The notes under the pieces were generated by a model that saw only the letters and a list, made by a program, of their open reading frames with translations, did no database searches and was not told where the DNA came from. From Ostrea edulis (Eukaryota): a stretch of 64,000 nucleotides of DNA. Below, in pieces: positions 4,270 to 5,277 of this stretch; positions within the stretch are counted from its first letter, which is position 1; each line of letters starts with the position of its first letter. Location: assembly GCF_947568905.1 (NCBI RefSeq), contig NC_079171.1:33728001-33792000 (forward strand), written 5' to 3'. The position numbers were made by a program, and so were the translations under genes.

Positions 4270-5277
4270 TCAATCAAGATCACTCTCAATCGATTTCACG
4301 TCCTGTAAATCTCCCACATTGCATTCCTTGGACATATTGTCTTGGGCATCGTAACCGAACGGGGTACATTCGGGACAGTCTAACATTCCAAGTTGATTTT
4401 GATGAGATTCGCTGAACATACAGAGTTCGGTGTCTTTGAGCTCTGGAACAGATTCATGCATTTCTTCAAGGGCATCTCTAAGTCTGGCTAGTTTGTTTCC
4501 GTTCAAAGTGACACCCTTCTTTGTCGGTATGGGTTCTGGGGCATCGTCGGGCTTCCAAAAGTGTCTTATATCCACTGTAGGGTAGCCGGGTGACAACGAG
4601 ACGAACACGCCTCCGCCAATATGCCACTGCACTTCTCCATTCTCCTTTCCAATGTTGTCTATGTAGTCTTCGATATCTGGAAGAAGGGATTCAAATTTTA
4701 ACCAACGAGCCAAAGGAAAGGTGACTCCTTTCTTTGTGGCAATGAGACGACCATGGGATTCTGCGAGATGGCGAATGTGAACGTAAACCGTTCCCTTGTA
4801 AGGCATGACGGTGAGGAACAGGTCATTAAAGTCATCCAGACTTATCCTACATCTTGGCTCCTGAGACTGAGGGTGTGTAGCTTTCTTTGATTGGTTTCCG
4901 GAATCTCCTCTTTCTTTGGTAGGAATGACTAAAGATCTTGCCATAGCTAATTTCTTTTCGTATTCAGACTTCGTATCATCGTCGTTATTCATCAAGAGTC
5001 TCGATAAATCAGCTTGATTGGCTTTCATTAAGGCCATTCGGAATCCCACAAAAGCCCTCGATCCTCGACGTAAAATGATACTAATCAGTTTTCTGCTTTG
5101 GTCGTAACTGGTTTTCTCGGCTTCTATGCGTTGCCTCATTTCGTCGGTGATTATGTTTGAAGCATACAAATGTTCCGCGACTCGAATTGCCATCATCTTC
5201 TTCACCAATATAGTGTAGTTTGCCTTAATAAGGTTTTGATGTTTATCCTCCATCTCTGTCCACATCAAAACTCTCAC
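4270..5277 (-). CDS. CARD (death-fold) + two PC4-like ssDNA-binding domains + C-terminal CHCC motif; ATG start probably 5265 or 5253
   Basis: N-terminal LIKANYTILVKKM..VAEHLYASNIITDEMRQRIEAEKTSYDQSRKLISIILRRGSRAF..F..AL fits a CARD. YVHIRH..ATKKGVTF...W and TVDIRHFW..PTKKGVTL are two PC4 signatures. CMFSESH-x8-CPEC follows. Confidence 0.8.
   Translation of the reverse strand: MRVLMWTEMEDKHQNLIKANYTILVKKMMAIRVAEHLYASNIITDEMRQRIEAEKTSYDQSRKLISIILRRGSRAFVGFRMALMKANQADLSRLLMNNDDDTKSEYEKKLAMARSLVIPTKERGDSGNQSKKATHPQSQEPRCRISLDDFNDLFLTVMPYKGTVYVHIRHLAESHGRLIATKKGVTFPLARWLKFESLLPDIEDYIDNIGKENGEVQWHIGGGVFVSLSPGYPTVDIRHFWKPDDAPEPIPTKKGVTLNGNKLARLRDALEEMHESVPELKDTELCMFSESHQNQLGMLDCPECTPFGYDAQDNMSKECNVGDLQDVKSIESDLD

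Follow-up and report, generated by a model that had tools for sequence, protein, structure and literature searches.

A CARD joined to MOSUB, a predicted ssDNA-binding protein, in a Polinton of Ostrea edulis, a gene likely mistaken for a caspase in oyster qPCR work

Introduction

Why should a virus-like element carry a CARD joined to two PC4 domains in one protein? The question is raised by a stretch of 64,000 nucleotides of the Ostrea edulis genome (NC_079171.1, positions 33,728,001 to 33,792,000), here called the window. An earlier note, made from the letters alone, had seen in the gene either a decoy or, conversely, a captured death switch. Here it is considered whether the gene belongs to the element or to the oyster, where its CARD came from, and what the protein would do in the cell.

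The architecture, which the earlier note had called unfamiliar, is annotated in databases and has probably been published already, as the host gene CgCARDCP-1 of Crassostrea gigas; the connection is made through the descriptions in citing papers. CgCARDCP-1 reportedly combines a CARD with two PC4 domains, resembles caspase-2, and is said to have shown cytoplasmic staining and a small NF-kB effect in human cells. The title of its description names LPS recognition and NF-kB activation (Wang et al., 2018; PMID 29751033), and a bay-scallop PC4 paper cites it, in the part available, as an oyster PC4 (PMC9223095). According to the accessible text of PMC7836458, a gene called “caspase-2” in O. edulis, whose expression Bonamia infection induces, does not encode a caspase and is 77% identical to CgCARDCP-1. 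The available citing literature treats CgCARDCP-1 as a host LPS/NF-kB protein, with no Polinton context, and its likeness to the present protein is one of description. Both parts of the fusion are thus known; a link of CARD-PC4 proteins to Polintons, a viral identity of the gene, its likely caspase-2/RAIDD origin and the mislabelling of a qPCR marker were not found in the open literature, beyond which lie subscription journals and Repbase.

The fusion gene and its Polinton

The CARD-MOSUB reading frame (P0001; 4270..5265, minus strand) encodes 331 amino acids and contains no stops. Its likely start is Met5 at 5253, where the homologues begin; the span 4270..5277 reported earlier overshoots the first ATG by 12 nt. 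A 2.57-kb contig from an independent DNA run spans the entire frame with 20 differences, and the fusion is therefore not an assembly artefact. As had been claimed, the frame is intact and lies directly before an integrase: a retroviral-type integrase ORF (rve plus chromo by Pfam; 2938..4092, minus strand) starts 178 nt downstream, and the context is that of a Polinton.

This element measures 21,113 bp, from an AGTAGT terminus at position 33713847 of chromosome C8 to position 6959 of the window. Its termini start with AGTAGT and form an imperfect inverted repeat of about 110 bp (84%), of which the copy at 6843..6959 (minus strand) is the element end; a 6-bp target-site duplication follows at 6960..6965 (plus strand), matching the left flank at 5/6 positions, inside a 360/438-bp satellite. 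The remaining genes in the window are likewise on the minus strand: an adenovirus-type cysteine protease (170..652; Pfam), a double-jelly-roll (DJR) major capsid protein (649..1965; DJR-like, E 0.003, under the cut-off), a 169-aa basic ORF kept in related Polintons (1968..2477), a 145-aa ORF with no Pfam match that is likely, from gene order, the minor capsid protein (2480..2917), a 146-aa ORF in which a single PC4 domain follows a hydrophobic stretch (5848..6288), and an 87-aa ORF with no assigned function, also kept in related Polintons (6386..6649). An 18-bp tandem repeat array at 5384..5552, to which no strand is assigned, is related to a subterminal array at 6726-6892. The ATPase and pPolB sit in the adjoining chromosomal sequence, pPolB as three ORFs in this copy. 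The Polinton gene set of pPolB, rve integrase, packaging ATPase, cysteine protease and DJR capsid is present, the Pfam scores of capsid and ATPase being below the cut-off.

The 146-aa ORF is a second PC4-family gene of the element, found in some subfamilies and missing from others. The satellite that received the Polinton consists of alternating 360- and 438-bp units (window 7035-10303). This satellite also holds a second, short AGTAGT-terminated element with tandemly duplicated small ORFs, immediately to the left of the Polinton (L031:332-2494, with the repeat to about 5600).

Domains of the fusion protein

Pfam places a CARD at aa 10-92 (E 9e-13, over the cut-off) and PC4 in two stretches (E 2e-14), and finds no peptidase C14 (caspase) domain. 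With Foldseek and trees, the CARD is of apoptotic type and covers aa 5-93 (4987..5253, minus strand). PC4 repeat 1, with R165 and a TKKG motif, occupies aa 137-207 (4645..4857, minus strand), and repeat 2, with R234, W237 and TKKG, aa 208-275 (4441..4644, minus strand); W237 aligns to the REYW tryptophan of PC4, which repeat 1 lacks. An AlphaFold2 model built from a 35-sequence alignment predicts an N-terminal six-helix bundle (pLDDT 80-90) and the two PC4 repeats, with low confidence in the linker and tail. Foldseek matched the bundle to the Apaf-1 CARD (TM by target 0.89, rmsd 1.0 Å). For the repeats it gave PurA repeats I-II, PC4 and MoSub1. The earlier assignments of a CARD-like N-terminal bundle, with a predicted death fold, and of two PC4 domains with a fold of the ssDNA-binding type are borne out by these matches.

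The predicted DNA-binding residues are kept in relatives (R165 in 124/129, R234 in 141/143, an aromatic residue at 237 in 137/141). Human PC4/Sub1 and PurA share the fold of the repeats, with the R and W residues aligned, and PurA likewise packs two repeats in one chain; these are, however, host nuclear proteins with neither a CARD nor a C-H-C-C tail. The tail (aa 282-300; 4366..4422, minus strand), also seen earlier, is a hallmark of the MOSUB family with the pattern C-x5-H-x8-C-x2-C. Its residues are near-invariant among aligned relatives, each at least 97% conserved (C282 131/135, H288 132/134, C297 132/133, C300 131/132), and would form a metal site, a prediction for a part of the protein where the AlphaFold2 model is of low confidence.

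Copies of the gene and their linkage to the element

A search of the genome gave 50 matches, of which the best 30 were examined together with 20 other regions. In this genome (G000), 28 distinct loci with similarity to both CARD and PC4 were examined, and every one has integrase sequence next to it. The same holds for 4/4 contigs with a CARD among 19 loci from metagenomes. The young copies of the gene number twelve; spread over four chromosomes, they are 0-6 nt apart over 993 nt, and one has a stop; older subfamilies are 62-90% identical and distant ones near 30%. No CARD+PC4 gene outside a Polinton was found among at least 75 CARD and at least 36 PC4 matches genome-wide, and these matches included neither an intron-bearing nor a single-locus host version. 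The combination thus does not appear to be an ordinary host-gene architecture in this oyster, a possibility that the earlier note had named as refuting its reading. A solo CARD fragment (L082) is, by tree, a remnant of the element CARD. The host's own tandem-PC4 gene (L084:406-1692) has a zf-PARP-like start, two PC4 domains in separate reading frames, no CARD, and no Polinton genes within about 3 kb; it resembles the zf-PARP/PC4 architecture reported in bay scallop. The fusion gene is element-borne, present in many copies and under selection.

CARD-MOSUB Polintons of several ages were seen mostly on chromosome C8 (at about 3.9-5.0, 25-26, 33 and 51 Mb), some of them nested in satellite, a clustering that could reflect an insertion hotspot or a trap region.

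The MOSUB family and the spread of the CARD fusion

The module that follows the CARD is, by fold comparison, a known adintovirus gene. The top viral fold match (BFVD) of the PC4 pair is MOSUB of a Branchiostoma adintovirus (E 1.8e-6, TM by target 0.54), and a second MOSUB stands further down these matches; on this modelling, PC4x2 plus the C/H part is identified as MOSUB. The adintovirus maps in the available material of Starrett et al. (2021; PMC8502044) bear the labels MOSUB, SSDBP, IAP and Bcl2. In the available main text and the supplement other than the Fig. S1 slides, which could bear on novelty, neither “CARD” nor “PC4” turned up as a name for a gene. Two adintovirus MOSUB entries in UniProt (A0A5H3CIS2, A0A5H3CT48) have the same fold and are carried by adintoviruses, but at about 200 aa, against the 331 aa of P0001, they leave no room for a CARD in addition to this module.

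A MOSUB profile search gave 2,697 clusters at 50% identity. The C/H motif occurs in 124 of the 143 new representatives and a CARD in 13/143; Pfam finds 12 CARDs among the 81 representatives scanned, which were picked mostly for length. MOSUB genes with no CARD also occur in other Polintons of this genome and in the close relatives P0080 and P0081, so that the CARD is dispensable, and in several relatives it is lost or truncated. Both domains are present in 58/80 close homologues, and a mollusc CARD/PC4 cluster in the Atlas has 61 members. Named relatives with a CARD belong to Crassostrea, Saccostrea, Ostrea, Pinctada and Mytilus, and Haliotis contributes a partial one. A scan of IMG/VR with the MOSUB alignment gave 8 pattern matches, of which 0 were confirmed.

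The idea that other domains are swapped into the same slot of MOSUB was rejected for BIR, none being found among the 81 relatives scanned, and for zf-PARP, since the zf-PARP-PC4x2 gene is a separate host gene over two reading frames. In a MOSUB subgroup (P0079, P0080, P0081, P0086), an additional Cys/His motif stands at the N-terminus and is followed in some members by a degenerate CARD.

Selection on the CARD and its donor

The CARD is under purifying selection, with dN/dS of 0.08-0.22 (10/15 pairs with unsaturated dS), beside 0.15-0.49 for the linker and 0.05-0.19 for the integrase in the same comparison. This value, across subfamilies near synonymous saturation, largely refutes the explanation that the element picked up the CARD by accident and carries it as a neutral passenger; the retention of the CARD from oysters to mussels also counts against it. 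The loss or truncation in several relatives would suit such a passenger, which is nevertheless very improbable.

Against single-exon host CARDs, 15 element CARDs form one clade (SH-aLRT 96). The host CARDs scoring best to a profile of the element CARD are those of a caspase (L170, 58.4 bits), RAIDD (L054, 57.0), L077 (52.9) and a further caspase (L171, 50.6); the protease exon of L171 has its best match in caspase-2, and both the CARD and the death domain of L054 in RAIDD/CRADD. A first tree, which left out the intron-split caspase CARDs, pointed to RAIDD, and adding those CARDs changed the placement: in the later tree the elements and two caspase CARDs stand on one side of a branch with support 65/85. 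For these later trees P0194 was left out as a long branch, and host CARDs with stops or of less than 76 aa were dropped; for a third caspase CARD (L169), no first exon was located. The search for a host donor, proposed earlier, has led to a tentative caspase-2-like grouping, with a RAIDD origin not rejected (p-AU 0.39). P0129, P0141 and P0194 are placed elsewhere on both trees, and more than one capture is possible, a single CARD origin not being rejected (p-AU 0.59).

With regard to signalling type, the earlier note had named both caspase and RIG-I/MAVS pathways. The best of 42 PDB sequence matches of the element CARD are Apaf-1 CARDs, no MAVS, RIG-I or BCL10 chains occur among the 42, and the CARD of P0001 scores 48.5 bits with the Pfam CARD profile against 28.2 bits with CARD_2. 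The caspase part of that claim is retained and the RIG-I/MAVS part is not: with moderate support from sequence, the element CARD appears nearest to host caspase-2-like prodomains and RAIDD, that is, to the PIDDosome CARDs of this genome. Unlike these, the element copy has no protease, no death domain and no intron. Host caspase CARDs consist of two exons, as is also stated for bivalves in the available part of PMC7836458, and the intronless state of the element CARD suggests capture from a spliced host mRNA. The donor was likely a caspase-2-like prodomain.

In the host, CARD and death-domain exons of RAIDD/CRADD were seen 4.3 kb apart on opposite strands (L048:502-771, plus; 4842-5114, minus), which might be a local inversion or a misassembly.

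Promoter, expression and the “caspase-2” marker

A putative promoter lies ahead of the gene on the minus strand (5356..5379), with a CCACGTGA E-box at 5372-5379 and then TATAAA at 5356-5361. In 7/7 subfamily representatives and 3/3 independent contigs, the start is preceded by a CACGTGA box and, downstream of the box, a TATA-like sequence.

The published O. edulis “Casp 2” primer pair (Gervais et al., 2018; PMC6104086) matches the P0001 ORF exactly, the forward primer at 4805-4824 and the reverse ending at 5046, and predicts an amplicon of 242 bp (4805..5046, plus strand), the product size stated in the available text. Among 193 loci, the reverse primer matches the 12 young copies and no other. 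According to the part of that paper available, “Casp 2” was run on DNase-treated haemocyte cDNA and showed no significant modulation. The exact match and the use of haemocyte cDNA make it likely that the gene is transcribed in somatic cells (haemocytes), and likely, judging from the primer sequences, that it has been mistaken for a caspase in oyster qPCR work. RNA runs cover small shares of the gene only. One presumed-RNA contig (5038-5415) has a template-switch adaptor at both ends and extends past the predicted promoter, and consequently gives neither strand nor start.

Possible role of the CARD

Most simply, a caspase-type CARD with no protease, set on MOSUB, would be a dominant-negative decoy for RAIDD/caspase-2. 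The two PC4 repeats may pack as a one-chain PC4 dimer, and, as the fold and conserved residues suggest, MOSUB would coat the strands displaced during protein-primed, strand-displacement replication. Tethered in this way to the ssDNA of the element, the CARD would occupy the CARDs of RAIDD or procaspase-2 and damp the DNA-damage death response to replication and integration, and the host cell would be kept from killing itself while the element copies. That Polinton MOSUB blocks RAIDD/caspase-2 death signalling by such a CARD is plausible, although it falls a little short of an even chance.

The cytoplasmic staining that CgCARDCP-1 is said to show fits poorly with a nuclear replication protein. 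Other points also count against a decoy: the donor support is only 65/85 with RAIDD at p-AU 0.39, the best PDB matches are Apaf-1, the CARD is dispensable, the RNA evidence here is weak, the marker lacked significant modulation in Gervais et al. (2018), and the title of the CgCARDCP-1 paper speaks of LPS and NF-kB, not of death inhibition. Parallels speak in its favour: Polintons of this genome carry BIR genes, as described below, adintoviruses are reported to carry Bcl2 and IAP homologues (PMC8502044), and the iridovirus GIV-CARD is reported to inhibit apoptosis (PMC4457926). In bivalves caspase-2 is represented by several genes, and no clear caspase-9 is reported (PMC7836458). Like that of P0001, the iridovirus vCARD is viral and protease-less, and iridovirus CARDs are among the viral fold matches; GIV-CARD differs, as far as its available description goes, in being a 91-aa, ICEBERG-like, CARD-only protein with no DNA-binding module, from another virus group.

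Death folds polymerise, and the CARD might bind only itself, assembling MOSUB into a cooperative ssDNA filament that aids strand-displacement replication and has no host target. The acidic E42 (11/15) and the basic R58 (11/15) and R66/R67 are kept in element CARDs, and constraint on the CARD is as strong as that on the PC4 repeats; most MOSUBs nevertheless have no CARD, and BIR/IAP genes in sister Polintons point to selection on host death control, so that self-binding alone is an unlikely explanation. The CARD of a herpesvirus protein, E10, activates NF-kB, and the element CARD might similarly switch on host pro-survival NF-kB signalling rather than block caspases. EHV-2 E10 is indeed among the viral fold matches, and NF-kB activation is stated in the title on CgCARDCP-1. 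The nearest host CARDs are, however, of caspase-2/RAIDD type, with no BCL10 among the 42 PDB matches, and this makes NF-kB signalling a still less likely function. The effect reported for CgCARDCP-1 is also said to be small and to come from human cells.

The joining of a nucleic-acid-binding module to a CARD follows the logic of host sensors, and likely haemocyte expression and the rise of a CgCARDCP-1-like transcript in Bonamia infection, given in the available part of PMC7836458, would agree with a pro-death ssDNA sensor, whether a caspase-2 switch co-opted by the host or a tool of the element for release or as a selfish toxin. All CARD+PC4 copies examined nonetheless remain within Polintons, twelve being 0-6 nt apart on four chromosomes, and the search for an intron-bearing or single-locus host version gave none. 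Since the gene moves together with the element, the captured death switch of the earlier note is disfavoured, and a pro-death role in any of these forms seems distinctly improbable.

Other death-related Polinton cargo

A decayed Polinton (L044:3792-5087) has, in order, MOSUB, a 148-aa BIR-only ORF and the integrase. By merging the two genes of such a MOSUB/BIR pair, gene callers could produce the “BIR+PC4” G3 IAP type that has been described in clam and mussels (PMC7831173). In a second Polinton family, pPolB and ATPase flank an intronless IAP gene of BIR-RING type that encodes 175 aa (L155-L161, L163, L165; e.g. L155:4843-5370). In a sample of 13 BIR loci, picked for dispersed single-exon matches and not at random, 8 lie between pPolB and ATPase of that family and a ninth beside an ATPase; among the 150 BIR matches listed, many are near-identical dispersed copies. 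Intronless IAPs are put down to retroposition in the available parts of PMC8917759 and PMC13159474, and IAP labels stand on Mytilus and Pinctada adintovirus maps in the accessible supplement of PMC8502044.

Some Polintons also contain an ORF of 165-183 aa that looks macrodomain-like by eye and has no Pfam match (L034:4085-4636, L037, L167:5022-5519); it adjoins MOSUB in L034.

A wider reading, which is on the unlikely side as a whole, would make the decoy a replication-coupled death blocker. The ssDNA-coating protein would show a stolen caspase-2 prodomain on the element's own DNA, keeping the PIDDosome off where viral ssDNA arises; some bivalve “immune genes” (CARDCP-1, the “caspase-2” marker, expanded PC4s and many intronless IAPs) would be Polinton cargo, and their induction by infection would be element activity.

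Conclusions

On these likely assignments, an “immune gene” already studied in oysters, together with a “caspase-2” marker of qPCR work, would belong to a recently expanded virus-like element, of which the marker matches 12 copies. This reassignment would alter the reading of those expression data and provide, ready to use, a marker for the transcription of Polintons in animal tissue. Together with the Polinton-borne IAPs, it suggests that part of the IAP, PC4 and CARD “expansions” of bivalves is viral cargo. The gene also offers a testable case of a Polinton that may counter host cell death by means of a captured CARD joined to a predicted ssDNA-binding protein.
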